This document shows, piece after piece, positions 1-20,890 of a stretch of DNA of 64,000 nt. The position numbers were made by a program, and so were the translations under genes. Origin of the DNA: an uncultured Planctomycetaceae bacterium. Lineage in GTDB: Bacteria; Planctomycetota; Planctomycetia; Planctomycetales; Planctomycetaceae. The notes beneath the pieces are model-generated. The model ran no database searches and was not told where the DNA came from. It saw only the letters and a list, made by a program, of their open reading frames with translations. The stretch covers positions 36,730 through 100,729 of the forward strand of contig CAWFAK010000010.1 of the NCBI GenBank assembly GCA_963813715.1. Direction: 5' to 3'. Each line of letters begins with the position of its first letter. Position 1 is the stretch's first letter.

Positions 1-1000
1 GGACAGGAGCGGCCGTGCCGTGATCGGTCCCCTCCGAGGCGTTTTCGTCAGCCCGTCGGCCGAATTCGCTGAACGTCATCACCACCACGCGATCGTCCAG
101 CTTCGCCTGCTTCAGTTCGTTCAGGAAGAAGCGGAGCCCGTCCGACAGTTCGCGCAAGAGTCGCTCGTGCGTCTCCCGCTGATAGACGTGCGTGTCGTAA
201 CCCGTCTGCACGGCGTAGTAGACCCTCGCTCCGAAATCGCTCTGGATCAAGCGCGAGATCGAGCGCCAAACGCTTGGGCAGTTCGCCGTAAGGCAAAGTG
301 GCGGAGTCGGGCCGCGGCTTGGCGGCCTGTTGCAGCCGGTCGGCCGTGGCGACGGCGTCGACCTCGCTTCGCCGCACGAAAGCCAGGAGCGATTCCTCCG
401 CTGCGCCGGAGACTGCCGGTTTCGATTTGTCGGCGAGCACCATGTCATCGAGATTCGACAGGGTGGCTGCGATGGATTTGCGTCCGCGAAGCGTGACGGG
501 GAGCGCTTCCGGCCCAACGAGCACCGAAGAGGGGCCCGCCGGCCTTGGGTGCGCGGCCTTCGTCGAGGGCCCTACCGATCCAACCGATACCGTTATGCTC
601 GGTCGGGTCGAAGCGGGCCGTCTCCCAGATCGAACGGCTCACGTCGTGCGACTTGTTCGGATTCGGGTAGCCAACACCCTGCACGATCGCCAGCCGCCCC
701 TCGTGAAACAGGTCTTGGGCGTCACGCATCACGGGATTGAGTCCCACCGCGTCGTTCAGCCGACGGACGCGACTCTTCTCGACCGCCAGCTTGGGACGCA
801 GCCGCTTGTAATTGTCGTCGGCGTAGGGGACGACGGTGTTCAGACCGTCGTTGCCGCCGTCGAGTTGGATCACCACGAGGATCCGATCGTCGAGTGACGG
901 TGCCCGCCGCGCGGGCCGTCTGCGCCAGGAAGGCAGGCACCGTCGGAGCCAACGAGATCAACGTGGCCTCTTTGACAAAATCGCGCCGAGTGAGCCGCAT
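1..1000 (-). CDS. DUF1501 domain-containing protein with Tat signal (frameshifted; runs off window start)
   Basis: Stitched ORFs 722-1018, 445-876 and 48-524. N-terminus MRLTRRDFVK...AQTARA (twin-arginine). Motifs VIQLDGGNDGLNTVVPY and QGVGYPNPNKSH are typical of DUF1501. ATG at 1000 follows AAGGAG. Confidence 0.85.
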
Positions 1001-1010
1001 AACGCTCTCC

Positions 1011-2415
1011 TTATCCAATTTGGGCTTCGGGGGAGGACAGCAAAATGGCGGCCGCTTGCCGCGCGCTCTCGGCCGTGAGCACCGAGCCGGTGCCGACCGA
1101 CTGCCTGTAGCGATTTCTGCACGGCCGCGGGGGGTTCAATTCCGAGGAGCGAGATGCGACAGGAACCGGATCCCCGGCCCCGCCTCACGTCCGCCTACCG
1201 TTCGTTCGACCAACTCGAGCACGCGGGCCGTCGCGGCGGGATAGCGGACCGCGCCATTCAGCAAGCGCCGCGGCGAAGTTGATCCTCGCGACGAGAGCCC
1301 GCGAGTTGAGCCAGCTCCGCCCGCCCGGCCAGCCGAACACGTTCGGCGGATAGAATAGGTCCTGTCCCATCCGCGCGATCCACTCGGCCAGAAAGCAGCG
1401 TGCTGGGGGGCGGCTCGAATTGTTCGAGCGCCCGCACTGCGCCGATCGTGAACTCGGGCGGAGTGACGATCCGCGAGCGAAGATTTGCCGCGGAGAAAAA
1501 TACCTGCGACCGCAGAATCCGCTCAACGCCCCAGCCAATGTCGAGTTGATGCTCGCGCAGGCCTTTTGCCAGATCCTGCACGAGCTCCGTCGTGAGCAGT
1601 CCCTCACCCAAAAATGTTTCGCAGAGCCGTTTCGCCAGCCGCACCGAAGTCGTCGGCTGCTCCAGCAGGAGCGCGACGAACTGGTCGCCGTTAAAGCGGG
1701 CTTTGCGGCCCAGGATCGTCTTTTCGCCATCGTCGTGGTGCTGCGAAAAGTCGTGAAACCCGTCCGGCTTGTACGACCAGCCGGTAAGCGCGCGAGCGGC
1801 GTCCTTGACGTCGGCCTCGGAGAAATTGCCGACGCCCATCGTGAAGAGCTCCATTGCTTCGCGGGCCAGGTTTTCGTTCGGATGCTCCTTGCGATTGGCC
1901 GGCGCGTCGAGCCAGTCGAGCGTCGCCGGCTCTTTGATCACGTGACGGAGCAGGTCGCCGAAGGGCGCGCGGGCAAACTGTCGCAAGACTTCGTTCTGCC
2001 GCCGCATGGCCGCCAGGTCGTTGACCTTGAGGTTGCTGGTGGCGAAGTGGTTGTGCCACAAGAGCGTGAGCCGCTCGCCCAAAGCGTCGGGCGAGAAGAG
2101 CATGCGAAATACCCACCAGGCCTTGAGCCGATCTGCCGACGCCGTCGACGCGGCCGCGTCGGCCAGCGCCGCGGAAACCGCCTCGAAGTCTTTCACGATG
2201 CCGTCGATCCGCGACTTGCCCTGCAGGACACGGGTGACGCTGGCCTCCGGCCCGTCGCGCAAGTCGCGCTCGATCTCGGCCCACGTTGCGGCAAACCCCG
2301 CGCGGCGATGCAGGTGCACGACGCGGGCGAGATCCCAGGGCACCCCAGTATCGGAAGCGTACGCGACCCAGGGATCCGGAACGTGATTCGGCTTTATCGC
2401 TGGTGCAGAGAACAT
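1011..2415 (-). CDS. DUF1800 domain-containing protein (frameshifted near C-terminus)
   Basis: HLHRRAGF, ERLTLLWHNHFATS and PNENLAREAMELFTMG, continuing in other frames with GQDLFYPPNVFGWPGGRSWL and ...LLSSPEAQIG*. Canonical upstream partner of DUF1501. Confidence 0.88.
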
Positions 2416-2593: not shown

Positions 2594-5500
2594 TTACCGT
2601 GACGGTTTGACGCGTAAGACCCCCAGTTGTTTGACCTCGCCCGGCCCGGCAGTGACGTCCGTAAAGATCTGTCCGAAGATTGACCTGCTCATCTTTCCGA
2701 ACCCTTCCTGAGGAATTCGCACATCGGCGGAGTACTTCAACCCGGGAATGATGCCGGGAAGCTCGAAGCGGCCATCCTGGTCGGTCAGGACGTGCCGTCC
2801 GTTGAACTCCGTCAGGATCACACCCTGCTCTCGATCATGCGCAGCTTCGCCAGCGGGCGGAGGGTACCGCCTCCCGCGGCGACTGATGACGGCATTTTTG
2901 AGAGGCTGCCCGTCGTCGTCGATGAGCTGCCCGACAATTCTCGCCCCCGGATGAAGGGTGATTTCCAGTTTTTCCGGAGGTTCGCCGGACAGCCGATAAA
3001 CGCCCACGAGGTTCCTCGCCGGATGATAAAACATCAGCGTGCGAGTTTCCGTGGGGAAGTAACCCGCGAGCGTGAAGGTTTCCGCCTCGTGAAACCTCCA
3101 GGCGCCATTGGACCGTGAGGCCCCCACTGGTCCGCTCACCGTAGAAAAGAAGTAATAGCCGCTGAGCGGTTGACTCTCCGGAGTCAAGACGCGGCCGCTC
3201 ACGCTGACTCCGGACCGCAGGGTCAGCTTGACGGACAGCACGTCGGGCTGCGGCTCGAGATCGATGGGCACGGTGAGGTGCGCGTTTGATGTGAAAGTCA
3301 AATACGGAGACTGGCGGAACTCATCCGCGGGTGCCGCTCGCAAACCGTCGACATGGTCGGAAAACACGCCGCAGGGGGTAGTCATCAAAAGGGCCGCCCG
3401 TCACCTGGAAAAGCAGCACTCCCTTGCCGGGCAGCACGGGGATCTCGAACCCGCCTTCGTGGTCCGTTCTGTAGCGACCCCGACTGTACCAATTGATCTG
3501 GAGGTGATCCGGGTTCGTCCACGATGCCAGATACTCCAAGTTGCCCATGACCGGCTTGCCTGTCCGCGAGTCGGTGACCTGGCCACGGACAAGAATTCCC
3601 GCCGTGAGCTGCACGTTGGACGTGAGCGGCTGGGAGCCCGCGGTCGTCGTCACATCAAAATCTCGCTGCAGATGTCGCGTCCCAAGCGGCGGAACGGCGA
3701 TGAGCTTGCTTTTGCCCAGCGGCAGGCCCTCGAGACGGTAGCGCCCCTCAGAGTCAGTCAGCGTTTGCAGGTAGTCGGAGGCCAGACTGGAGGAAGGCCG
3801 CAGACCCGCATGCGGGTCCGTCGCAGTGTAACCGGTCTTCACGACGCAATCGGCGAGCGGCCGCCCCGTTTTGCGGTCGGTGATGCGACCTTCGACTGGA
3901 ATCGAGGGCCCCAGCAGGCCCGTGAACTCGTTCGGATAGAAAGACTCGGATTGAAGACTGGCGGCAGACGGCCGGTCGAACGCCAGCTTGATCGGCTCCC
4001 CTCGGCGAGACAGGACGTGCAGCAGCCGCATTTCCACGTTCGGTGCGCTCACGAGAATGTCGGCGATTCGCTCGCGGCCAATCCCCCTGAGCGTGAACCG
4101 GCCGTCCGCGCCGGTCCGGACCACGGGCACAATGGCAGAGTTTGCGGTGTCTATTCGGCGTAGGCTCCGGCCAGCCGTATTCTGGTCGGCGCCGCGCTGC
4201 TTCGTGGCTGCGACCCAGGCATCCAGAGTGCCGTCCGTTCCGCTGTGAACGGAGAGCGTCCGCACGATTGCGTCGGCAATCGGTTGACCTTCGATGTTCA
4301 CCAGGCGACCACGAACCGGCACATCATCGGGGACCAGTTTGAGGACCGCCGGTTTAGCGGCAGTCTGCGTCTTGAGCCGACGCCGCTGCTCCTCGGTCAA
4401 TTCAGCCATCAGTCGGCCGCTCGTCTCGAATTGGCCCGAGGAGTCGAATGCGAAGCCAAGGCCGTCCTTCGTGGCGACGATCGTCGCATAGCGCCAGGCC
4501 GGAATCCCGCTCGGAACGGCGTCGGCGAACTCGCTTTTGCGGCGCGTGAACTGGAACTGTCCGTGTGCGTCCGTTACGGCCAACGTCGCCGCTTGACGCT
4601 CCGGAGGACCCTCTCGCCAGTATTGCAACATCAGCTGCGCACCGGCGACCGGCAGTCCGACGTCATCGAGGACTTTTCCCTCATAGGAAAACGCGACATC
4701 AGCCACGACCGGCGTCTTAGGCGCGGAGGTCGGGGCTTGCGCGTCGGAAGAACTGACAGCGTCGCTTCCGTCCCGCTTGATCTTGATCTCGCCCAGATCG
4801 ATCGTCTTTCCCGGTGCGAAAGAGACTTTCTCGGCGACGGTCACGAAGTCGAGTTTGGGATCCAAGGCGCGAATCTTGTAGCTGTCGCAGCCCGCCGCCA
4901 GGTTTTCAATCGCGAAGTGTCCGTCGGCATCGGTCATGGGACCGGAGGTATACAGACTGAACCATGCGTGGCCGTACCGCATAGCCTCGGCGAACACCTG
5001 CACGTTCTTGAGAGGGCTTCCTTCCTCGTCCAGGAGACGACCGCGCACGGTCGCGCAGGGCTCGAGTTTGACTGTCAATGTCTGCGAGGCTTTCTCGTCG
5101 TACTCGAAGGTGAAGACCTTGGCGATTTTTCGTTGCCATTGGGTGATCTGGTAGGTCCGTGATTCCTTCGGAGCCAGGCCCGCGAGCTCAAAGGTGGCAT
5201 CGCGTCGCCCCCAGGTCACGGCAAGCGCGAGTTCCAACTGGAGAAGGTAGCCATCCTCCACCGGCTTGCCTGCACCATCGACAAACGCGATCCGTAACTT
5301 TCCGCCTGGATCGAGCGCCAGGTCGCACGCCGCCGACTCGGTCCCCGGCGTCGGATTGATCTCCTTGAGCGCGTTCTCGAAGGATCCGAAGGCAGGTCCC
5401 AGCGTTTTTGGGAAACGGCCATTTTTCTCCATCCCGGGAATCTCCGAGGCTCCCACGCCCGTGAGATACAGCCCGCCCGCTGCTCTCACGCCCACGATGG

Positions 5501-7071
5501 CGCGCCAGGGCAATCCCACGATGCGATAGGTTCCGTCCGGCGACGTGACCCGATGGGACGCGTCCTTGACGCGCTCGATGGTCCGCCACTCTTCCACATT
5601 CACGAACGGATTCGACCCATACGGGAAATAATGGACGACCGCACTAACGGGTTTGCCGGTCACCTTGTCGGTCACGCGGCCGGTGATCCACAGCCCGCGC
5701 CTGAGTTTGATGTCTAGCGTGATCGGATCAAGCCCCGCAGTCTGCGGGATATCGACTTCTTTTCCAAAATACGGCTGGTCGAGGTTTGGCGCCACCACGA
5801 GCCGGTCGTGTTTCCAATCCTGATCGACGGGCGAGGTTTCTTTGGGCATGCCGATCAGTCGGAACTTCCCTTCCGCGTCAGTCTGGCGCAGATGAATTTA
5901 TGCTGGCTCAATTCGACACGGACCCCTGGGAGCGGCTTCCCGCTGGCCGCATCGCGGACGGTGCCGATAATCGGCTTGGTGAGAGCAGCCTGATATGTAA
6001 AGTCTCCGCCAAAAATCGGCGTCGGCCGGTTATCACCGTCGATCGCACGGTCCGCTGCACTGGGTGTGATCTGTCGAGTCACCACTTCGATTCTCGCCGT
6101 GGCAATCGTCTCTCCGCTGATTTGCAGGTCCACCACTCGTTCGGGCCCGACTCCCCGTACGACAAAGCGGCCATCCCGGTCGCTCACAATGTCTATGGAC
6201 GTAGCTTCCTCGTAACCCGGGAGTTGTGATCCGAGACGGGCGTTACTGTCCCCTTTCTTCATCGCGTCCACCCAGGCGCAACATCCTGACCTTCTCGCGG
6301 CACGCCTTGCGCCACCACGCGCACATGAACTCGGCTCAATGGCCTCCCTTCCAGGTCGACCACGCGGCCGTGAATGAGCGATTCGGGGATGAGCCGCAGC
6401 ACAACCGGCGAATTCGTTTCCTTCCCGGGAACAAAGGCGGGTGCGCGCGCCCACTCGACGCCAAAGCCGTCCGTCCGCGCAGCGAGCCCAAACAATCCCG
6501 TGCCGATCTCGTCGTACCAATAGGGAGGAATCCAAATCTCGAATTCGCCGTTTGCCGCGGCCTTTGTGGTCGCCAGCGGCTTCCAACTCACCCGATTGGA
6601 CCAATACCGTCGCAGCGCGAGGATCTCGGCCCCCGCAGCCGGCCGCCCATCGGGCAGCAACACAGTGCCGAGAATCTGCTGCGGTCCGTTTTCATTTTTC
6701 GCGGCGTTTGGCGGGGTCCTGTCCGATGCGGCTGAAACTTGCTTCGGCGCCGAAGCGCGCTCAGGCGCGCTCTCCGCCCGCGTGAGTTGTGTTGATGCGG
6801 GACGGCCGGCCTGGGTGTCGGCTGCGACCGGCAACGCTACAGCCGGTGAGATCTCGCCGCCGTCAGTTTTGGAAACGGGCGCGGGAGGAGTCGCCCCTTG
6901 CTGCGCGAAGCCGATGCCCGCGACGGCCGCAAGCGTGACGACGCACGCCCCGAGGATCCAGCGTCTGCCCACCCTGGGCGCGATGCGGGCTCCCGCCAGC
7001 ACGTGCTGCAGCCGACGTTTGAGCGAGTCGCCGCGATCACCGACGATCGGGAATAGTCCGGGCGTGTTCAT
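2594..7071 (-). CDS. Membrane-anchored/secreted protein with two large carboxypeptidase-regulatory-like beta-sandwich modules; protease-less paralogue of the upstream M56 protein (~1,490 aa if indels are errors)
   Basis: Stitched ORFs 6259-7071, 5855-6604, 3321-5849 and 2594-3388. N-terminus DSLKRRLQHVLAGARIAPRVGRRWILGACVVTLAAVAGIGFAQQG. Repeated GRxxDxxGxP / TDxxGRF motifs. Modules start near 6675 and 4686. Confidence 0.75.
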
Positions 7072-7072
7072 C

Positions 7073-10000
7073 TCACTTGGCGTCCTTCGCGGTGCCCGCG
7101 GCCAGTTCCTTGGTTCGTTTTTCCGTACCGCGGCGGTCGGACTTCCCAGCGTCGCCCGTTGCCCGATTGGGGCCCGACGGCGTTTCGACGGACGCCGTTG
7201 TCGCTTTGGCTGCGGCGGGCGGCTTCGTGCGTTTCACCGCCCCGCGATGGACTTTGGGAAACCCGCGATCCATTCGCCCGCGTTCGATCGTGATGGTGCC
7301 CAGATCGATCTGATCTCCCGGAGCGACTGTCAATTTGTCGGCGACTTGAGCGAGAGACGATAGATGTGCGTCCAGAATGAATGGCCCTCCCGCTGGAAGC
7401 TCAAGTCGCAAGTGTCCGTCTGCGTCGGTGATCGCAGTCGGATTCCGGACGAACGAAAAACATTCGATCTTGACGTTCGACAGGGGGGCTCCGTCTTCGG
7501 ACAGAAGCCGGCCCGTCACAACGGCCGGCGGTTCCAGCACGATCGTTCGTTGGGCTTCACCGGGTTGCGGCGTGAAGTCGAGCAGTTTCGTGAGCCCGCT
7601 GGCGCGATGTCGCAGCAGGACCGTCCTTTTGTCGCCCGGATAGGTTCCGTAAAGCGTTGCAGAATCGCTCTCGGTAAACGAGCGCGGCGGTAACATCCGC
7701 GGATCGAGGACCAGCCCGACGGCTTCGACCCCCGAAAGCGGCTTGCCGGACGCGTCCGTGAACTTCAGCACGACGTTCTGCCCCGGCTCAACCGGCAAGT
7801 CGACGTTCACCTCGGCGCAAGCGGGGCAACGTCGATCTCGCGCAGGGAGTGGAACATGCCAGGCTCGATCGGCGACAAGGTCGGCGAATTGATTCTCTTT
7901 CTTTTTGCGTCGACTAGTTCTTTGATCTCAGCCCATCCCAGGTTGAAGCGGTAAGTCCCTTGCGTGCATTGCAGGCCGACCACGCCGCGACCCGGGATGA
8001 CGGGGACCCGAAAGCGGCCGTCCGGGCCGAAAACGCCGGCGCTGGAATTCCTCGAGAAGTCGGGTTGACCGGCGAAATACTTCGCGGCGAACTCGTTCGA
8101 TCGGAACGGCGTGTAAAGAACCGAGCCGGAGACCGGTTTGCCGGTTGACCGATCGTAGGCGCGGCCCACGGCCCAGATCGCGCGCTTCAGCTTGATGTCG
8201 AGCCGAATCGGCTCCAGCGAGACGGAGGCGGGAATCGTCGCCTCGTTAGCAGACAGGTAGGGCAAATCTGGAATCAGGATCCGACACAGGTTGATTCGCC
8301 CAGTGTCGAGCCCTTCGAGGCGAAAGTGCCCCTTGGGGTCGGAGGTCGCCGACACGAACATGTTGCCCCCCACCAGGGTCGAGTCACCCCGCTTCACGCC
8401 ATAGGGACGGATCCCGACGCCCGGAATGGGCTGGCCCGTCTCTTCATCCGTGACGAAGCCTTCGACGAGGACGCTCGGCGACGCGACGTGCTCGAATTGA
8501 GAGCCAAGAGTCTCGTGAAATCTAAATGGGATCGGCTTGATCGGCCTCGTCACCACGCTGGCGACGAATGTGGCCATTCGTGGACCCGAGATTTTCAGAT
8601 AGACGTGTCGATCGCGTCCGATTCCCTGGATCTCGAATCGCCCGTCGGCATTTGTTTTCTGCGCCGGAATCAGCGCCTCCGAGACCGATGCAACCGCCTT
8701 GACACGGAAGACAGCCTCTTCGCGGCCCCCTCTGTTTTCATCGAGCGAACGATTGGGCAAGAACCAATGGATATACACGGGCTTGTCCTTCGCGGAGGCG
8801 ATAAACTGATCGACCCAGGCCGCGGTCGAGTCGTAGACGATGACGACCTCGACACGGACATCGCGCAACGGTCGCCCTTCTAAATCGATGATGTGGCCGC
8901 GAATCGGCTCGTCATCGACCAGGTTCATGACAATCGCGTCGGTCTTTTCCGCCGGAAGGACTGGATGCAACGCGAGGCCATAGCCGGCCAGCGTGGCCCA
9001 CAGATTGACGCTGTCCCGGCGATCCGTCATCGGACCAACATCGACGCTGCCCCGAAATTCACCCTTCGCATCCGCGGACAGCGTCGTCAGCACTGTGAAC
9101 TTTTCTGTAGCCGCCGGGTACGGCTGACCGACGGCCTTAATCACTCGCACGGTCGCGCCGACCGCCGGCTGACCGTTGGGCAACAGCACGCGGCCGCGGA
9201 GTTCACGCGTCGTCATCGCGGAAGGCGCGGGTTTCTTTTCGGTTGCCGCTGATGCCAGATGCACTTCCGGGCGAGGCGCCTGCACGGTTGACGCGTTTGC
9301 GACGCCGGGAGATTTGCTGCGTTTCAGCGATCCCCTCGTGATCCTTCTGATTCGTTGCTGCCGGGCGTCGAGTTCGATCGTGACGTCGCCGAAATCGATT
9401 TGCTCTCCCGCGGCAACCGTCAGGTTTTTCTCAAGTTGTTTGAGGGCGCCCGTGACGACAGACACGTAACGCCCGGCGGGGATCTCGCTGCGGAGACGTC
9501 CTTGGGCGTCGGAGGACGCCGCCCGCAAGCCTTCCGGCAGGTTGTAGGCGGGCGTGCAGGTGAGGCTCCAATTCGCGAGCGGCGTTCCCTCCGGAGTGAG
9601 GAAGTGCGCGGTGATCACGGCCGGAGCCTCGAGAACGATCGTCCGCTCGGTCTCCCCCTCCTTTGGCGTAAAGCGGAACAGCTTTGTGAGACCGCTGGCC
9701 CGGTGCTTGAGCCAGACCGTTCGCGTCTCGCCGGGGAACGTGGCATAGAGCGTCGCCGAGTCACTCTCAACAAAGGACCACCATGGCCGAGCCGAGTAAC
9801 CCTTGCCTGACTGATAACGCACATACCGCAACCCGTACGCTTCCACGCCGGCCAGCGGTTTGCCGGCCGGATCGGCGAACTTGAGAACGACGTTCTGCCC
9901 CGGGTCGGCGGCCAGATCGGCATGAGCCTCTTCGGCATCCGGCGGGACGTTGATTTCCCGCACCACCTGATAAGGCCCATACGGCGCGGACGTTAATCTC

Positions 10001-13000
10001 TCGAAGTCGGCGATCGCCTCCCGGCCAAGCTGGAGCCGGTAGTCCCCCTCGTCGCAGTAGAGAGTCAGCACGCCACGTCCCGGGACGACGAGGAGCCGGA
10101 AACGTCCGTCCGCTTCGACATTTCCGCCCGTGCCTTGAATCACGTGATACTTTCGCGCGACTTCATTGGAGCGAAACGGTGTGTACTGCACCCAACCGGA
10201 GACAGGCTTGCCCGTCACCCGATCGGACGCGCGGCCGACGGCCCAAATGCCGCGCTTGAGCTTGACGTCGCACCGAATCGGCCGAAGCGCCACGGCCGCG
10301 GGAACCTCAAAGCCGGCCCCGGTTTCCATTGGCTTGACGTACCAGGGGTGCAGATAAGGCAAATCGTGCGGTTCGACGCCGCAGACGTTGGGCTGCTGGG
10401 TGTTGAGTCCCTCGAGCAGGTAGTGGCCGCGAGCATCGGTTGTCGCGGAGGCTGACAGGCCGAGCTCGACCCTCCACCTGCCCCTGTCGGACCTGATATA
10501 GGGAAAGACGGTGGCGCCGGCGATCGGCTTGCCGCTCTCTTCGTCGGTGATGAATCCTTCGACGGGCACGCTCGGCGAAACGACGCGAGTAAACTCGGAA
10601 CCGTCAACTTCCCACTGGGGCAGGGGAATCGACTTGATCGGCCGCGTCAGAACGCTGGCGAAAATCGTGGCCGTTCGCGAGGCGGAAATTCTGAGGGCGA
10701 TAAGCCGATCGCGCCCCAGGCCCCGCATCTCGAACCGCCCGTCGGAATCCGTTTTGACCGTCGGAACGAGCGTTTCGGAAACGCGTTGAGGCGAGTCGAC
10801 GTGCAAATACGGTCCGCCCGGTGCGGACCGTCCTGCCGAATCGCCTTCGTCGTCGAGGAATGCGTTGATGGGCCGCGGCAGCTTGGAAATCGCGGCCAGC
10901 CATTGGTCGATCGAGTCGGTCGTCGTGTCGAAATAGCGAATGATTTCGACGCGGGCCTCGCGAACGGGCCGCCCCTCGAGGTCGACAATCCGCCCTCGGA
11001 TCGGCTCCTCTTGGGCCAGCTTCAACACGATCGGCTGCGCGTCGGAGATCGACGGGAGCGGCCGCACCACGAGGCCATAGCCTGGCAACGCGGCCCAGAC
11101 GCTAAGTGGACGACGATCCTTGAAGCCGGCGGCATCGATGTGGCCCTCGAAATCTCCGTTCGAATTCGCAGTGCGTTTCGCCAGCACTCGGAGTTCAACT
11201 TGCCCCGCGAGCACGTCGGCTCGAATCACGCGGACGGTCGCCCCGACGGCCGGCTGACCATTGGGCAACAACACGCGGCCGCGCAGTTGCGCGTCGGTGA
11301 CGTGTCAGTCCGAAGTGATTCTGTCTTCGCGATTTGCCCGGAGCGCGGAAGCGGGTGCCGACGCGATCGGCGGCTTCACTGCCGTCGCCTTTGTGCGTTT
11401 CGGTGGGCCGAACGTGGCTTTGACATCACGCGGACGCTTGCCGGTGCTTTCGAGCGTGATATCGCCGAGTTCGATTTGCTCTCCCGCCGCGACGGTCAGT
11501 TTGGGTAGTCGACAACGACCGGCAAAGAGGCCAATCGAGCCGCCTGCCGGCAGGTCGCGACGAAATCGTCCCTGGGCGTCGCTCATGACGGGGGGAAAGG
11601 CTTCCTCGAAACCCTCGCCGAAATCGCATCGAATTTCGATTCCGGAAAGAGGTTTCCCTTCGGCGCTGACCAGGCGGCCGGTAACGATGGCCGGCGGCTC
11701 CAGGACGAGCGGGCGCGGGCCTCCCCGGCCTGCGGAGAGAATTGCATCAGTTTTGTCAAACCCGTCGCGCGATGGCGGAGCCAGATGACGCGGTTTTCGC
11801 CCGGATAACCTGCATAGAGAGTCGTCGAATCGCCTTCGACAAACGACTGGCCGCGCTTCCGGCGCCGAACGGGGCCCGGCAAACCTCAGTCCGTTTGTCT
11901 CGACCCCGGCCAGCGGCTTGCCGGCGGCATCAGTGAACTTGAGGACGACATTCTCCCCCGGATCGACTGGCAGATCGATGCTGGCTTCGCGCGCCCGGCG
12001 CGAGATCGATCTCGCGCAACGAGTGGTACATTTCTCCAAAGATGAATCGGTAGAGAGGGGAAGCCAGAGCCGCGTTCCGATCGGTCAACGACTTGATTTG
12101 CGCCGGCCGAAGTCCAGGCGGTAGTCGTCCGAGTCGCAGCGCATGTAGATGATGCCGTGTCCGGGATAGACCAGGGCGCGAATATGCCCCTCGGGGTCGG
12201 CTTCTCCGCATTCGAGCAGTTCGTCCCAGAACCTGGGGATGTTTCGCAGCCACCTCACGGGCGGGTTTGCTCGTTTGAAACGGCGTGTAAAAGATCTTGC
12301 CCGAGACCGGCTTGCCGGTTGTCCGATCGTAGGCTCGACCAGTAGCCCAGATCCCGCGTGTGAGCTTCAGGTCCTTGCGGATCGGATCGAGCGACTTGAC
12401 GGGACCAACCCGCAGCCCCTGCATCAGGGAGAAGTAAGGCTGGCCGGGCACACGAACATTGCAGTTCAGCCCATAGGCCGGATCGATCCCCTCGAAGCGA
12501 TAGTGTCCGCGGGCATCGGTCGTTCTCATCCCGTATAGAGCTAGGATTGATCGCAGGCGCACACCCGGAATCGGTTTGCCGGTCTCCTCGTCCGTGATAT
12601 CTCCCTCGATTGTCACGCCCGGCGATAGGGCACGTTCGAATTGCGAGCCGGAGATCTCCATGGATTGCTTACGGATGGGCTGGATGGGCCGCGTCAGCAG
12701 GAACGCGAACGTCGTTGCCACGCGCGGACCGGAGATTCTGAGAGCGATAAAGTGATCGCGCCCGATACCTTGTATCTCGAAGCGGCCGTCGGCGTTGGAT
12801 TTCGCCTTCGCCAGCAACGACGCGGGTAACCACGCTTTCGACGTGGAAGGGATCAAGGACTTATTTTGGAATTCCGCATCCTTGCTTTGAATCGACGCGA
12901 TCCACGGGTCGATTGCGTCCGCCTTCGTGTCGAAGTATCGACGACTTCGATGTCGACGTCCCGAGCGGGTCGCCCCTCCAGGTCCATCAAGCGACCCCGG

Positions 13001-15406
13001 ATCGGCTCCTCGGCGACAAGATGCAGCACAATTGGCGTCTCTTTGTCGGGCAAATACGCAGCATGGGCCAGTCCATAGTTTGGCAGCGTGGCCCACAAGT
13101 CGACCGCGCATTCTTGCTCCGTGAGCAAGCCGACGTCAACCTTGCCCCCGAATTCACCCCTCACGTCGGTCGAGAACGTCGTCAAGAACGTGATCGTGTC
13201 GGGCGGCAGGACTGAGTACTCGAGGCCGACGCTCTTGCACACTCGCACGCTCGCACCGATCGCGGGTAGCCCGTTTGGCAACAGCACGCGGCCACGGATT
13301 TCGCGGATCGTTGCGGGCTTCTGCGAGTTTTCCTTTGGTCGCTGGGACGTTGCGGAAGCAGGCCGGATGTTGACGCTTGAATTGCGGCGGGCGGCTTTGT
13401 GCGTTTCTCCGGACCGCGATGGATCTTGGGTCGCAAAAGTCCTTTTTGGTCTCGATCGATCGCGATATCCCCCAGTTCGACGCGTTCACTCGCGACAACC
13501 GACAGCTTTTCGGCAAAGAATGCATAGGGGAATGGATTCGCATAGAGTTCAAACGGTCCCCCGGCTGGCAGCTCGCCGCGAAAACGCCCCTCGGCATCGG
13601 TGCTCACAAACGGGAGCCGGTCGGCCGAGTTGGATTCGAACACGCACTCGATCCGCAGGTCCGACAGCGGGGTCCCCTCGGGGGTGACCAGCCGTCCAGT
13701 CACAACGGCCGGCGGTTCAAGGACGACTGTTCTCTCCGTTTCGCCCACTTTGGGCGTGAAATGAAGCAGCTTCGTGAGGCCGCTCGATCGATGCTTGATC
13801 CAGATTGTCCGCGTTTCGTCCGGCGAAGAGGCATACAAGGTTGCCGAGTTACCTTCGATGGACGATCGACTTCGATTCATGCGGCTGTGCGGATCGAGTC
13901 GCAGCCCATACGTCTCCAAACCGGCGAGCGGGCTGCCGCCTGCATCGGTGAACTTGAGGACGACGTTCTGGCCCGGATCGACCGGCAGATCGACGTGAAT
14001 TTCATGCGTGTCCGGAGTGACATTGACTTGCGCACCGCATGGAATGGTTCCGACAAGAGACGTTCGTATGTCGGCCCGCGCATCGATTGCGCCATTTCGG
14101 AGCCCGCCAGCTCCTTAATCTCACTCCGACCGAGGTTGGGCCGATAATTGCCCTCCGAGCACTTCAAGCAGACGACTCCCCGGCCGGGTATGACCGGAAT
14201 CTTGAACCGTCCCTGGTCGTCGACGAACCCAAACGGGTAATTCGCCAAGAAGTCCGTGGGTGCGTTTCGATACCGCTCGTAATTTCGCGCGGCTGGATTC
14301 GATCGGAACGGCGTGTAATAGACCGATCCAGGGACGGGCTTTCCATTCGTCCGGTCGAAAGCCCGACCAATGGCCCATACGCCGCGTCTCAGCTTGATAT
14401 CGTGTCGGATCGGTTTAAGAGACTCGGAAACGGGGATCGATCCATTTTCGACGGGAGGGTAGGGCAAATCGGGGACGACGATCTTGTAATAGTTGGTGGT
14501 GCCCGTTTCGAGCCCTTGCAGGCGATAGTTTCCTTGAGCGTCGCTCGTTCGCGACAACAGGGCTGCGATGTGTGGATCGTTCAACAGGACGCCATTTTCG
14601 CGCTCGACGGCGGTGGGAATGATGCGAGCGCCGGGAACGGGCTTGCCGGTCTCTTCGTCGGCGACAACCCCTTCAACCGCAACACTCGGCGGCGCCACGC
14701 GATCGAATTGCGAGCCGAAAATCTCGTGATATTTGAAAGGAATCGGCCGGAGGGGCCGCGTCAAAATGCCCGCTTCGATCGTCGTGACTCGCGGCCCGCT
14801 GATTGCCAAATCGACGAGTCGATCCCGTCCAACCCCCTTGATCTCGAAGCGCCCTTCGGCATTTGTCTTCACCGCGGGCATCAGGACATCGGAGACGTTT
14901 TCAGCTGACTTGATGCGTAAAATCGGTTCACGTCGATCAGGCTTCGGCTCCTCGCGAGTGAAGTTGAAAAATGTCTGGCCGGGCGTGACTCGACGCGCTG
15001 AAGCGAGCCATTGTTCGACCCAGGGAGTGGTCGTGTCGAAGTACCGCACGATTTCGACGCGAGCATCGCGAACGGGCTGCCCTTGCAAATCGAGGATGCG
15101 TCCGCGAATCGGCTCTTCATCGACGAGGCTGATCTCGATCGGGCCACTCTTTTCCGCCGGGGCAAGGTGATACGGCGTCAGACCATAACCGGGAAGCGTG
15201 GCCCACAGGTTGACCTGGACTCCGGGTTCCTTCATCGAACCGATGTTGACGCTTCCCCGAAACTCTCCCTGTGAATCCGTGGAGAGCGCAGCGAGCACTC
15301 CGAACTCCTCAGCTCCGCCTTCGTAACGGGGATACTCAAATTTGATCGCGCGCACGGTCGCCCCGACGGCTGGCTGGCCATTCGGCAACAGAACCCGGCC
15401 ACGCAC
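7073..15406 (-). repeat. Four diverged intragenic tandem repeats of ~2.0-2.1 kb
   Basis: Each unit opens with (V/I/L)RGRVLLPNG(Q/L)PA(V/I)GA(T/S)VR at ~15406, ~13299, ~11286 and ~9201. Units also share EEPIRGRxxDLxGxP, YTPF(R/Q), PG(Q/E)NVVLKF(T/A)D and SGLTKL-like motifs. Confidence 0.85.
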
Positions 15407-16779
15407 GGCGACGACGCCGGGGGGAAGCGCGGCGCAGGATTCTGCGCGGGAGTCGGTTGTGGCGACGGGATTGCTGGTGGTGAAGCCGTTGGCGTCGCTG
15501 CGGGCGCGGGGGAAATCGGGGGTTTCGTTTCTTGAGCTGTTTCGAGTTGAGGCGCGGGTTCCGGAGACGGAGCCGCGGCGCGTTTGCCTTGCTGGGCGAA
15601 ACCGACGCCGGCAATGGCGGCTAGCGCGAGCAGCGTGGAGGCGAGCAACCAGTGGCGGCCGACTTTGGGGGTGATCCGCACGCCAGAAAGGACGTGTTCC
15701 AGCCGCCGCTTGAGCGACTCGCGGCTGCTGACGGCGGCCAAGGCGTGGGCCGGCGCGCCTTGTGGGACGAGTTGTAGCAACGAGTCGGCGTAGTCGGTCG
15801 CCTCGCCTCCGGTCGACAGCACCCAATCGTCGCAGGCTTGCTCGCGGAGGTAGGCGAGCCGGCGACGGCTGAGCCAGGTCAGCGGTTGCCAGGGCAGGGC
15901 GATGACCACGATTTCAGCCCACAAGGCGGTCCAGTGATCCCGGCGGATCGCGTGCGCCAGCTCGTGACAAAAGACGCTCCGCCAGAGGATCGGCCCCGCA
16001 TCGGTCGCTGAAGTCGGCAGCAACACGACGGGCCGTGCGCTCCAGCACCAGATCATCGGGCAGCGAATGTGCGGCGTGGGCGCAGGGACGGTGCGCCTCG
16101 CAAGCCCAGGCGCTCGCGTCGCCTCGCCAAGAGCGGCGACCAATTGCGGATCGGTCTCCTCGCGGGCAGTCCGCACAATTCGCGTCCCTGCCAGGAGAGA
16201 AATCGCCAGCCGGACCAACAACAGCAACGACGCGATCGACCACGCAGCGGCGAGCGCGGCGGTCACGCGCGAGGTCCAAGTGAACGGCGCGGGCGGCGGT
16301 TCGAGGGCAGTCTCGGTCGTCTCCGCGTCTTGCGGTTGCTCGCGTGCCGTAGGGTCGCTCGTGGCAACTTCCGGTTCGATCGAGCTGGTCGAGCGGCCCG
16401 GCATCGAGTCGAGTTCTGATTGTGCAAACTCATCCGGGGAATCGGCCCGCTCTCGAGGGAGCTGATCGTCCGGATGGTGGACCTCGGCCGCGGGTGCCGG
16501 TAGCTCGGTGCCAGTCACGACAACAGGCGGCGGTTCGGGAGGCGCAGGCAAGAATCCCCATTGCATGCGATGGACGATGACCGTGAGCAAAGGCGAGACG
16601 AAGGCCGCGCCCATCGCGAGCACGAGCAGCAGATGAGCCCGCCCCGCGCGGCGTCGCCACACGCGGGCCGCGAGCAGCCCCACAGCCAGCCACAGCGTCG
16701 ATTGCCAAACCAACAGCCACGCGAAGTCGCTGGTCCCGCCGGACGTCGACGGGAGCGCACCCATCAGTCGGTCAATCAT
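7073..16779 (-). CDS. Giant BlaR1-like M56 family metallopeptidase with four tandem ~690-aa extracytoplasmic modules (~3,200 aa if indels are errors)
   Basis: N-terminal TM helices, HELAH zinc motif (FCHELAHAIRRDHW, ~15952-15966), REQACDDWV and SLKRRL, then a TM helix. Stitched ORFs 15232-16779, 13877-15826, 13182-13919, 12853-13287, 11930-13111, 11305-12039, 7807-11274 and 7073-7810. Confidence 0.82.
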
Positions 16780-18391
16780 CGTTCAACTCCGCTCTTAGTC
16801 TTCGAGTGCACGGCGATATTCTGCGTGAGTTGTGTCGCCGTTTCTGGCACGTTCAATAGGGCAATCCCCTGGAACTGGGATTGCGGCATCGCGCTCGACC
16901 CGCCAATACCGGCAGCAATGACGAGGCTATCCTTGATTGGCCCCTTCATGTCGGCGCGGCCGTATCGGACGCCTTCGTGTTTAAAAAAGGCATCGGCGTC
17001 GACGCGTGCCGGCTCGAAGTCGTCACGCGCCGACATGCGAACAACGACGGCTCCCGGACCAGGCAAAATGCCTAAAGAGAACGTTCCGTCAGTGTTGGTG
17101 GGCGCCTGGCTAAATGGACCAATGCCAAACGCTGTGCTGGACATTCCCTTTTCGATGTGAGTACTAGGATAGAGCGGCCAATACATGACCTCGGCGGACA
17201 CTGGTTTGCTGTTCGACCGGTCGATCACGCGGCCAGAGAGCGGAATCGCCCGATAGACGTGCAGTTGCACTTCAAGAGGCCCCAACCCCGGCGTATCGAG
17301 GGCCGTCAGCGATCCGTCGATGTAGGACGATTGATTGGGTAAGCTCGCGCCGAGCTGGTACTTGTCTTCTTTGGCGCAGCCCCGCAATTCGAAGCGGCCC
17401 GACACGTCGGTGGTTGTCTCCGAGAATCCGTCGAAATGGTTGACACGCACTCCCTCAATCGGCCGCCCGGTCTTGGCATCGGTCACGGTGCCGACAACGG
17501 GACGCGACGGACGCACATAGTGCGTAAACCGTGCGCCGTAGGTGGCCTTCGTGAAGCGGGGCGGCGTGCCGTTAAGCATCCCATCGAATGGATCAGTCAA
17601 TACGTGGATCGTGGTGTCCGCGATCGCGTCGCCGGAAATCACAAGTACGGCGCGGCGGTGCCGCCCGATGCCGCTGAACCGGAAGCCTCCCCGCTCGTTG
17701 GTCAATGCAGCCGGCGCTTCGCGGCGTAGGGTGACCCTGCTCCCGAACATGAGCCATGAGGTGAATCGGTAGTTCGAGGCGCGCATGTCGTTTGTTTTCA
17801 GCACCCTGAGATACGGTTGCGGATCGTCGTTGGCAAACGTCTCAATGGCGACGATCCGGACGGCGGCCCCCACAACCGGGCGTCCTTCCAAGTTCACAAT
17901 GCGGCCTTCGATGGGCAGATCATCGGTGGCAAGCGTTAGTCTGAGTTCCGTGGACAGCTTCAACGTCTCCGGGTCGATCCAGGCCGGACCGAATCCCGAC
18001 TTTACGGCTTTGATCCGCAGCGAAGCTGCACCAAATCGGGCGTCAGAGCCGGGACCGAAAAATCAAAGTCGCCATCGCTGACGGTTGTTGCCTTCAAATC
18101 GATGAGATAGCCGGGACCCGATCGTATGAAAAACACTTGTGCGCCCGGGGCCGGCTTGCCATCAGGCTGCACAACTCGACCAGAAAACCGGCGGGTTTCG
18201 TCAGCTTCTCCGGAACGATCCTGTTTGCGTTGAGCAGATTTGTCCGCCGCAGAGCGTGCCGCGGATTGGTCTCTGGCTGGTCGCTGTTGAGCCGCGGCAG
18301 TATCCCCAAAACTCACCGCCAGCCAGACCGTCAATCGCGAGACAATTGCCCAGGCGAACCAAGCCGGCAGAGCTGACCGAGCTCTATTCAT
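16776..18391 (-). CDS. Secreted single-module carboxypeptidase-regulatory-like protein (frameshifted)
   Basis: ORFs 18002-18391 and 16776-17963. Signal-like N-terminus ending AAAQQ. FSGRVVQPDGKPAPGAQV, DDLPIEGRIVNLEGRPV and ILPGPGAVVV match the module of the M56 protein. Overlaps the blaI stop and the M56 start (ATGA). Confidence 0.75.
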
Positions 18392-18776
18392 GGGAAAGTT
18401 CCTTCCGCCGCTTGTCGATCATCTTCCGCAGCTCGGCCAGGTCGGCGGCACTCAGCTCCTGGTCATCGAGCAGGTGCTGAAACATGGCAATCGGGTCGCC
18501 GCCGCAAACGCGGTCGATGAATTGCCGCAGCGAGCTGCGTCCGGCTTCGGCGCGGGTGACCACCGGGCGGTAGACGTAGGCGCGGCCCTCTTCTCGATGC
18601 GTGAGCCAGCCTGCCTTGTCGAGCTTTTGCATGACGGAGAGCACCGTCGTGTAGGCGAGCTTGCGACGGGCGAGCTTCGTTTTCACCTGGTTGACGCTCG
18701 CCTCGCCGAGCGTCCAGACGATCTCCATCACGGTTTTCTGCAAGTCGCCCAAATCGTCGAGCGAACGACGGGACAT
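18384..18776 (-). CDS. blaI: BlaI/MecI/CopY family transcriptional repressor
   Basis: LGDLQKTVMEIVW...LAYTTVLSVMQKLDKAGWLTHREEGRAYVYRP...LSAADLAELRKMI. ATG at 18776 is preceded by GAAAGGAA. Confidence 0.93.
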   Translation of the reverse strand: MSRRSLDDLGDLQKTVMEIVWTLGEASVNQVKTKLARRKLAYTTVLSVMQKLDKAGWLTHREEGRAYVYRPVVTRAEAGRSSLRQFIDRVCGGDPIAMFQHLLDDQELSAADLAELRKMIDKRRKELSHE

Positions 18777-18828: not shown

Positions 18829-18872
18829 GTACTACGACAGATAGTAGTACCGCCGGGCCACCACACCGTCAA
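18829..18872 (-). promoter_or_regulatory. sigma70-like promoter overlapped by a palindromic putative BlaI operator
   Basis: Minus strand TTGACG-17 nt-TACTAC (18872-18844). Inverted repeat GTACTAC-N8-GTAGTAC at 18829-18850 covers the -10 element. Confidence 0.72.
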
Positions 18873-19085: not shown

Positions 19086-19538
19086 TCAGCTCGCCTTCGG
19101 CGCCTGGCCGATGTCGATGGCGACTTCTTGCGTGCCCGTTTCGACTGATTGACGCAAGGGCGTTTTGTCGGGTCGGGCGTATTTGAGGGGCAGTCGGCTG
19201 TTAGGGACGTCCTTGCCCTCGGGCAGATCGTCGTCGTCTTTGCCTTTCCCCGAGGGGGCCTGTGCGGCATCGATCACGATCACGCGGTGTTGGCCGACGG
19301 CCGCCCCCACCGAGCCATTGGTGCAGCGGAGCTGAAAATGTCCTTCCGCGTCGGTCAGGCCCGTCGATTGCGGCAGTTTGCGATCCTCGGGAATGAAGGT
19401 GACCATTGCATCGGCGAGGGGTGCCCCGTCGACTCGCACGGTCCCCTCGACCTGCCCCATTGGGACTTTGCGCGCGCAACCACAGAGCGCGAAGAGGCTC
19501 AGGCCGAGGACAATACGGATCGACAACGAACGCGGCAT
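19086..19538 (-). CDS. Carboxypeptidase-regulatory-like lipoprotein (DUF1559 partner)
   Basis: Lipobox-like FALCGC, GQVEGTVRVDGAPL, TDAEGHFQL, GAAVGQHRV, LPLKYARPDKTPL; typical gene downstream of DUF1559. Confidence 0.8.
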   Translation of the reverse strand: MPRSLSIRIVLGLSLFALCGCARKVPMGQVEGTVRVDGAPLADAMVTFIPEDRKLPQSTGLTDAEGHFQLRCTNGSVGAAVGQHRVIVIDAAQAPSGKGKDDDDLPEGKDVPNSRLPLKYARPDKTPLRQSVETGTQEVAIDIGQAPKAS

Positions 19539-19572
19539 GGCGCGAAGGACTCTTCCTGGGGAACCGGGCCGC

Positions 19573-20574
19573 TCAGAACGAGGTGTCCGTGACAATTTCG
19601 TTGCCCGCGCGCGTGCTCAGCGCGACGAGCACCGTCTGGCTGATGTACTGGTTCACGGTTCGCGCCGAGCCATCCACCATCGCGAACTGGGCGGCGCCCG
19701 GATGCTGGCTGCCGAACGAGCACACCCGCAACGAGTCGTATGTGTTCGTGAAGGTGGCGTTGGTCATGCCTTGGGCGATCGCTTCCTGATAGGTGATGGG
19801 ACACACGTAATTGATCGGAGAGAAGGAGCTTTCCGTGACGTCGCTGACGCCGTACTGGCCGCCAGTGGAGGCCCACCAGCCCCAGGCGCCCATCGGATCG
19901 ATGCTCCAGCCTGGGGCGAAGAACGTATCGTAGTTGGCATCTGTGTGGTTGCGCTCGCCGAAAAAGAGCGTCGTCGAGGTGCCGTCGAGGACGTCGGCAA
20001 AGCCAATTTGCGGATTCTGCGGCGTCGCCGGTCCGGTCTGGAAGAAGATGCCGTCGGCCGTGGTCAGGGTCGGCGGGTACGAACGCGTGCCGCAGTTTCC
20101 GCCGTAGCTCGTAATGGCGTACCAGGTCGTGGTGTTCGACTGGTAGGGATTCTGAGGAATCTTGTCGGAGGGACAAACGTAAGTCGGAATGACCTTGGCG
20201 CTGTTGGAATCCGACGCGTCCGTCGCGGTGCCAATCGTGTTGTTGTCCGGATCGCCGATGAAGTCCCACTGCTGGTAGAGGGAGCCGGCTTCGATATAGG
20301 GGAGCAAATAGACGAACATCGTGTAGCCGCGGAACTTGGGCTTCACCGCGAAATTAAGCCGCATCTGCCCCGGGGGAAAGACCTGGTAAATGTCGCAATA
20401 GTTGTGCGCGGCGATGGCGAGCTGGTGGAGATTGTTGCGGCATTGCGTGCGGCGGGCCGCTTCCCGCGCTTCTTGCACGGCGGGAACCAGGAGGGCGATC
20501 AAGACGGCGATGATGGCGATCACCACGAGCAATTCAATCAGCGTGAAGCCGCGACGAACTCGATCCTGATTCAT
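19573..20574 (-). CDS. DUF1559 prepilin-type N-terminal cleavage/methylation domain protein
   Basis: RRGFTLIELLVVIAIIAVLIALLVPAVQEAREAARRTQCRNNL, DGTSTTLFFGE, and C-terminal H-X9-DG (SQHPGAAQFAMVDGS). Confidence 0.95.
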   Translation of the reverse strand: MNQDRVRRGFTLIELLVVIAIIAVLIALLVPAVQEAREAARRTQCRNNLHQLAIAAHNYCDIYQVFPPGQMRLNFAVKPKFRGYTMFVYLLPYIEAGSLYQQWDFIGDPDNNTIGTATDASDSNSAKVIPTYVCPSDKIPQNPYQSNTTTWYAITSYGGNCGTRSYPPTLTTADGIFFQTGPATPQNPQIGFADVLDGTSTTLFFGERNHTDANYDTFFAPGWSIDPMGAWGWWASTGGQYGVSDVTESSFSPINYVCPITYQEAIAQGMTNATFTNTYDSLRVCSFGSQHPGAAQFAMVDGSARTVNQYISQTVLVALSTRAGNEIVTDTSF

Positions 20575-20890
20575 GAAGGCCCTCTCACCGGTGCATTGAT
20601 TCGCATCTTGAAGTCGCGCACGATACGAACGTGCCATCTTAGTGACAGGATGATAGCAAATCCAGGAATGGACGCGATGTGAGGTAGAGCACAAACTGCT
20701 GAAGTTTTGCCAGTCCGACGAGCCGCCGGTTCAAGGGCCTGTCGAGCCTGTTCGGCGAACTTCAGAAAGTCCGCTTGCAACTGCGCTCCCCTTGTCAAAA
20801 TCATCGGCTTTCAGTCAAAGTCATCGCACGCGCATTCTTGATCGGTAGTCATCAATCAGAGCTCGCCAACCCCGAGAATTGGAACATCCA

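Follow-up and report, generated by a model that had tools for sequence, protein, structure and literature searches.

In an uncultured Planctomycetaceae bacterium, a gene for a BlaR1-type M56 protease (gene A) is followed by a second gene (gene B) that encodes the tail of such a receptor and no M56 protease domain. We show that gene B is a separate gene under selection, which stems from a duplicated M56 gene and carries a new, conserved N-terminal peptide. The A-B arrangement is a real, selected and lineage-restricted variation on the BlaIR architecture, and apparently a new one. With respect to function, we give an even chance to the reading that gene B encodes a protease-less accessory chain of the BlaI-M56 receptor, which would dock in trans, plug the active site and add a second extracellular array. 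The analysis concerns the window, i.e. the whole stretch of 64,000 nucleotides, which lies on contig C10 of a 7.49 Mb assembly in 18 contigs.

Along the minus strand, blaI is followed by the gene of a secreted repeat protein, then by gene A, which combines the M56 protease with repeats, and lastly by gene B and a DUF1800 gene (Table 1). Stop and start codons overlap between blaI and the repeat gene and between the repeat gene and gene A, and a single base separates the stop codon of gene A (TGA, 7075-7073) from the start codon of gene B (ATG, 7071-7069). The repeat gene is split here into two open reading frames by a frameshift. A BlaI-repressed operon is likely, because an inverted repeat and a TTGAC hexamer precede blaI here and a similar repeat was seen by eye 5' of blaI in eight of the eight relatives' loci inspected. 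A strict promoter scan did not call the operon promoter near 18872, and no promoter-like site was found near 7071, where gene B starts.

Table 1. Positions of the genes and sequence elements of the A-B locus in the window.
Feature	Position	Strand	Remarks
DUF1800 gene	1258..2415	-	PF08811, E 5e-78
Gene B, protease-less tail protein	2594..7071	-	Intact counterparts P0045, P0060, P0062, P0065
alpha10-equivalent TM helix ending GFA|QQ	6904..6960	-	Likely signal peptidase site, as after BlaR1 alpha10; cleavage presumed
alpha9-equivalent helix SLKRRLQHVLA	6994..7026	-	R20 (7012-7014) corresponds to BlaR1 R294, invariant in 10/10
Five-residue linker	7027..7041	-	Sequence variable (26% B-B identity), length fixed in 9/10 N-termini
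B-specific decapeptide MNTPGLFPIV	7042..7071	-	77% B-B vs 11% A-B identity; predicted active-site-binding strand
Gene A, BlaR1-type M56 membrane zinc protease with long beta-sandwich repeat array	7073..16779	-	PF05569, E 7e-19
Gene A loop end, alpha9 (15685-15717), last TM (15595-15651)	15595..15735	-	By sequence comparison
Gene A catalytic motifs HELAH (15952-15966), EQACD (15829-15843)	15829..15966	-	Aligned to BlaR1 HExxH, ExxxD
Secreted CarboxypepD_reg repeat protein, ordinary signal peptide	16776..18391	-	PF13620, E 1e-16; between blaI and gene A
blaI/mecI-type repressor gene	18384..18776	-	PF03965, E 3e-31; full-length alignment to MecI in PDB, E 2e-7
Inverted repeat GTACTAC-N8-GTAGTAC	18829..18850	.	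Just 3' of TTGAC hexamer at 18872; likely BlaI operator

The secreted repeat gene between blaI and the M56 gene was also found in G002, the closest relative, and not in the other relatives' loci inspected. In the G002 locus (L024, near 6889-7009) the first gene A modules are followed by a DUF1501-like gene; the remainder of gene A, gene B and the DUF1800 gene are missing there. A DUF1800 gene lies downstream of the M56 operon in loci L021, L022, L023, L026 and L027 of relatives too. The fragmented gene that follows DUF1800 in the window is presumably DUF1501-like, and the two together (window 1-2415) come after the M56 operon in several relatives, possibly as a BlaI-regulated output. The same strand carries, further upstream (19086-20694), a prepilin-like gene of the DUF1559 type together with a small CarboxypepD_reg gene, a pair that is ordinary in planctomycetes. 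The genome has 24 PF05569 matches at about 20 loci; in 14 other planctomycete genomes the number of matches lies between 4 and 39.

Gene A encodes a BlaR1-type M56 protease: its fold has the four TMs, the loop and alpha9, and it is linked to blaI and a putative operator. PF05569 scored 68.7 bits against a cut-off of 31. The intact protein has 3239 aa and is read as several pieces in the window through assembly errors, and the intact proteins P0076/P0079 map along it and share its stop. For a structural model of the gene A orthologue in the relative G009 (pLDDT 82), the six best Foldseek matches were all BlaR1 chains (E 5e-5 to 2e-3), and the TM-score to 8exr_A was 0.38 by query and 0.61 by target. 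No penicillin-binding domain was found in the pieces of gene A scanned, which matched CarboxypepD_reg-type families only. Self-cleavage, BlaI cleavage and a swapped dimer are assumed for gene A by analogy with BlaR1, as is a sensing role for the repeats. The repeat modules occupy 7197-15403 in gene A, with 64-77% DNA identity among them, and 2594-6732 in gene B. Modules have been exchanged between the A and B genes of relatives (L023, L024, L025), and the length of the M56 proteins varies between about 1050 and 3914 aa.

Gene B is frameshifted in the window by assembly errors; intact, it encodes 1492 aa with a loop, a helix alpha9 (LKRRL), the last TM and beta-sandwich repeats. The first-pass annotation had quoted its start, and the first 59 codons translate to exactly that sequence. 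It had also noted the lack of a protease domain there, and PF05569 indeed matched neither the open reading frame in the window, nor the 1492-aa protein P0045, nor the eight B-type proteins listed. The reported likeness to an internal segment of gene A was found for residues 15-59 (64% identity, E 3e-11), similarity starting at about residue 14-16; residues 1-10 (11% identity) are not a copy of the A loop. As judged by alignment, gene B has the KRRL helix with the R294 equivalent followed by a TM, which are the swapped-tail elements of BlaR1. One of its modules gave generic beta-sandwich chains only in a fold search (TM-score at most 0.14) and no clue to a ligand. In the 7.49 Mb genome there are two tail segments of this kind, those of genes A and B, and a six-frame scan of 104,045 open reading frames gave one stand-alone tail match.

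In BlaR1, as described in PMC9834060, a loop (residues 271-289) forms a strand that sits against beta3 in the active-site cleft; its cleavage falls between S283 and F284 (S283|F284), and R294 follows ten residues after the cut. Protomers swap alpha9 and alpha10, which brings R294' together with D246 of the partner, and G331|Q332 is a signal peptidase site after alpha10. The LKRRL segment aligns with the BlaR1 helix bearing R293-R294, by a weak sequence match (E 0.13-0.18). By this alignment the start of gene B lies 19 residues ahead of the residue that corresponds to R294, at about BlaR1 position 275, inside the loop and 8-9 residues before the cut; the equivalent of the P1' residue would be residue 10 by ungapped count and residue 9 in the model described below. 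Gene B is thus not the exact product of autocleavage, since its start precedes the equivalent cut. It had been proposed to be a "pre-cleaved" sensor fragment, a proposal that does not hold as worded because gene B keeps the unprimed side of the cleavage site, and this extra peptide is the most conserved part. Judged by sequence, the N-terminus corresponds to the loop in an uncut and untethered form.

The ten distinct B-type N-termini that were available share a start position and a motif, MN[AT]PG[LF]F[PS]xV. Among nine B rows (P0049, which has an insertion, was left out) the pairwise identity was 77% in residues 1-10, 26% in the linker, 77% in alpha9 and 49% in the TM, compared to 73, 71, 90 and 61% in the same regions of the A rows (the 23 of 31 that could be anchored). 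Column variability in eight B rows was 0.10 (residues 2-10), 0.40 (linker), 0.10 (alpha9) and 0.24 (TM), and in A-type rows 0.16, 0.14, 0.05 and 0.19. The bimodal pattern in B held after removal of two near-sister rows. Between the window and G009, codons 1-10 had four synonymous changes and one replacement, the linker one and eight, and alpha9 four and three, counts that come from two sequences and ten start-peptide codons. In all 21 full-length B pairs, the likeness in residues 1-26 (54-88%) exceeded that of the best match in the mature part (28-67%), though the modules are shuffled. The TM was present in all eight B rows long enough to contain it and was a helix in the model of P0047. This bimodal conservation supports a binding element, and is unlike what a signal peptide would be expected to show.

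The main alternative is that a deletion in a tandem M56 duplicate gave rise to B as a repeat protein that is secreted or anchored and whose tail serves as a signal peptide only; its N-terminal conservation would then reflect recent common ancestry, gene conversion or expression constraints. We consider this improbable, while several observations speak for it. In these loci M56 genes are commonly duplicated whole and in tandem, the operon already holds an ordinary secreted repeat gene, and as a Sec signal peptide gene B has an h-region and an AxA-like site, its TM ending in GFA|QQ as conserved among B proteins. B tails are also relaxed relative to A tails, evolving faster (alpha9 77% vs 90% identity) and with longer branches. 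TM-only versions exist as well (P0033/P0040, and G000:C11 near 3607). The latter, at about 3607-5268 on the plus strand of another contig of the window's genome, is an M56-less paralogue 5' of another blaI with tandem M56 genes; it has lost alpha9 and keeps the last TM only, which lies behind an AGGAG site and serves as a plain signal peptide. Such paralogues indicate that the signal-peptide route is available, that export can do without alpha9 and that alpha9 is dropped where export alone is kept. Export does not need an n-region of 37 residues with invariant positions, and in gene B this region is better conserved than the mature protein. Replacements saturate the linker while its flanks are nearly fixed, although synonymous sites differ. 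The decapeptide is not explained by inheritance or conversion from A, because it shares 11% identity with the A loop.

We modelled the complex of G009 A (residues 1-339) with zinc and B (residues 1-62). The model scored 0.83, compared to 0.30 for the best of three controls; of the solved pairs, 116 of 157 reached the score mark, and of the mismatched pairs, 2 of 215. Runs agreed in 93% of the contacts, with a partner pLDDT of at least 77. Residues 5-9 of B were placed against P231-C235, V259, H262, E263 and H266 of A, i.e. the edge strand and the HExxH motif, and R20 of B against E303, Q304 and D307. The model copies the BlaR1 geometry described in PMC9834060, with the loop in the zinc cleft, the R294'-D246 pair and residue 9 as P1'. 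The input A was cut before its own alpha9, to which alpha9 of B is 82% identical, and a BlaR1 structure exists; the pass therefore denotes a fit, possibly by likeness to the solved structure, rather than binding in the cell, and has no bearing on competition with A's own tail. The suggestion that the fragment could pair in trans with the neighbouring protease is to this extent structurally plausible, through a swapped alpha9-alpha10, with the same reserve that the pass may reflect likeness.

For B as an accessory chain, we propose the following. B would insert alpha9-alpha10, the elements that BlaR1 protomers swap (PMC9834060), into the protease core of A, replacing A's own tail, most easily after A has cleaved itself. 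It would supply an R294-type arginine to A and place its untethered peptide (G-L-F-P-x) in the zinc cleft so that a bulky residue, 9 or 10, points to S1'. A peptide in the cleft would block access of BlaI, so that B would most likely re-inhibit or reset A. As B would be produced when BlaI is cut, this may amount to negative feedback on A, and the different extracellular array tied to A may let a second input act on the same protease. Cutting of the peptide by A would turn B into the fragment proposed in the first-pass annotation. Against an accessory chain, B is optional, being found in one of nine genus relatives with gene A's M56 subfamily (several of these loci stop at contig edges), its tails evolve faster, and in G003 its modules belong to gene A itself. 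A more general version is tentative and somewhat doubtful: a modular BlaR1-type receptor, with one catalytic chain and one or more tail chains encoded apart from it, each with a pseudosubstrate peptide, an active-site arginine and its own shuffled array. If true, the cell could change what it senses, or switch the receptor off, by exchanging tails, and the locus would prove, by a natural example, that alpha9-alpha10 can function in trans as a swapped unit.

The same contacts allow B to be read as a regulated cargo, bound and cut by A in trans at its N-terminus, which would license release, anchoring or turnover of B. The B peptide is substrate-like in the model, bulky residues occupy positions 9 and 10 in all rows, which fits the S1' preference given in PMC9834060, and at position 8 two N-termini share the Ser found at P1 of BlaR1. 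The other 8 of 10 have Pro there, however, and the tail of A carries the same kind of array, so that gating B alone would lack a clear purpose. We regard this reading as quite unlikely. A resemblance between the B peptide and the BlaI cut region, with Phe three residues before a bulky residue, is too short to weigh.

The distribution of gene B was assessed in protein and genome collections. A two-sequence profile run against 1.84 billion representatives gave 27 matches, six of them from profile position 1, and a six-sequence profile gave 26 matches among 8000 candidates, eight without an M56 domain. The ten N-termini come from both profiles: seven belong to proteins of 729-1492 aa, two to fragments and one to a TM-less remnant. 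A-B pairs were observed directly in the window and in G009, and record data suggest two more (P0019 with P0048; P0018 with P0075). Among 301 genomes of the family, 12 matched the tail profile, and only that of the window (G000) and G009 did so from position 1. No stand-alone tails were found in 401 genomes of the class, where the listed loci checked were whole M56 genes or frame fragments, nor in 401 genomes of the phylum or 121 of a sister family; these wider results mean "not found" and not "absent", because part of the candidates per genome and the tail subfamily of gene B alone were scored. An upstream protease core was present at 43 of 45 loci examined, the other two being gene B and a weak 19-bit match. 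In the genomes searched, B-type N-termini were not found beyond this genus and its metagenomic kin, and the form, which some soil planctomycetes carry, is so far restricted to this one uncultured genus and that kin.

Other searches added little. A metagenome contig scan with a single 60-aa query returned one locus, rejected as a chance match across unrelated genes, and a word search at near lengths returned five proteins that were all whole M56. A genome contig scan gave two loci, the G009 region and an 18-residue match in a Bacteroidales record. With a degenerate DNA pattern for the start peptide, 12 genus genomes had many matches with one or two mismatches, and only G009 an exact one among the matches listed. 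In the ESM Atlas, unnamed 53-aa clusters at 0.91-0.93 resemble the B N-terminus and may be tail-only proteins elsewhere or contig-end fragments, a 112-aa cluster resembling it has PF05569 on 31% of its members, and a second query gave no usable match.

In G003, the repeat modules of gene B form the end of gene A, and the last modules of gene B have 84% DNA identity to the end of another M56 gene of G009; the arrays have therefore been shuffled among these genes. Elsewhere, in the class, phylum and sister-family samples, duplicates were whole M56 genes. In these planctomycetes a single blaI is often followed by whole M56 genes in tandem (L022, L063, L064 and further pairs), and heterodimers between them would be another route to mixed tails. 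A single origin of gene B was neither shown nor rejected (p-AU 0.31) in a tree of 44 tail columns that skipped 4 of 28 A rows.

The first-pass annotation had named uniqueness to this genome, with relaxed selection, as the sign of a simple deletion relic. The form is present in G009 and in ten distinct N-termini, under purifying selection (dN 0.27 vs dS 1.18 over codons 1-59). The presence of gene B is patchy, and a 69-residue TM-less product (the P0037 cluster) looks like a remnant, but seven lineages have open frames of 729-1492 aa and an RNA-library contig covers the junction of the two genes (DNA carry-over in the library is possible), which makes a decaying deletion relic very improbable. 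The 69-residue product (P0037, P0042, P0043, P0044) consists of the start peptide, alpha9 and, fused to these, the end of a module, and may be a deletion remnant or a small soluble plug; its records apparently match those of P0015 and P0039.

The A/B junction was examined because the assembly has single-base errors, a C being missing at 5885, 6278 and 7814 of the window. Contigs from four of four sequencing runs span 7069-7075 without an indel, while they correct those three other places; run X1 is possibly the source sample, and another is the RNA library. Furthermore, the stop of gene A is the end of three independent proteins, and the Met of gene B is the start of four full-length 1492-aa proteins. 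The locus in G009 is unbroken and reads blaI, A (1730 aa), B (1432 aa) and DUF1800, with the same start peptide and a different A/B gap of seven bases. That A and B are one protein, with the stop at 7073 an assembly error, was suggested by the many such errors in the region and can practically be dismissed: a fusion through a missed frameshift is ruled out by the run contigs and the independent full-length proteins. Neither of the refuting conditions set in the first-pass annotation thus held, a real stop, recurrence and purifying selection all pointing to a separate, selected gene for an M56 tail.

A natural gene that separates the loop and alpha9 from the protease makes the gating of BlaR1-type proteases by autocleavage loop and swapped alpha9, an open question in the discussion of PMC9834060, testable with two genes. 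The B peptide is also a natural template for a peptide that binds the M56 cleft. The reach of these findings is limited to one uncultured planctomycete genus and its metagenomic kin. Domain-based annotation misses receptor subunits of this type, because they are named for their repeats alone. No description of a tail-only M56/BlaR1 subunit gene was found in the open-access literature searched.

Among known regulators, propeptide and pseudosubstrate inhibitors of zinc proteases fill the cleft with a strand that resembles the substrate, and an active enzyme can also be regulated by a catalytically dead partner, its non-catalytic paralogue. The putative inhibitor B differs from these in that it derives from the fold of the receptor itself, is anchored in the membrane, would supply an active-site residue and would carry an extracellular array of 70-150 kDa. 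Non-canonical BlaIR systems, which are common, also combine an M56 protein with BlaI without a beta-lactam sensor, i.e. CenIR of C. difficile (PMC13492132), PvmSR of P. aeruginosa (10.64898/2026.08.03.742534) and mycobacterial BlaIR. These keep the protease while the sensor is varied or lost, and a protease-free tail gene is not described in the passages of these sources consulted. A survey of M56 proteins distinguished 254 architectures, one with CarbopepD_reg_2, the transpeptidase type making up about 6% (PMC13492132); a tail-only gene is invisible to a survey based on the M56 domain. The closest comparison is to BlaR1/MecR1-BlaI/MecI (M56; PDB 8EXP-8EXT; PMC9834060), where a repressor gene likewise precedes the gene of a membrane zinc protease of family M56 that has the HExxH and ExxxD motifs, the loop, the KRRL helix alpha9, a last TM followed by a site like that of signal peptidase, and a C-terminal part outside the cell. 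In BlaR1 two identical whole chains form the dimer, each with its loop tethered in cis and a sensor that binds penicillin, whereas the planctomycete system has a chain of beta-sandwich repeats in place of that sensor and a second gene for the loop, alpha9, TM and array alone, in which the loop peptide is untethered and different.
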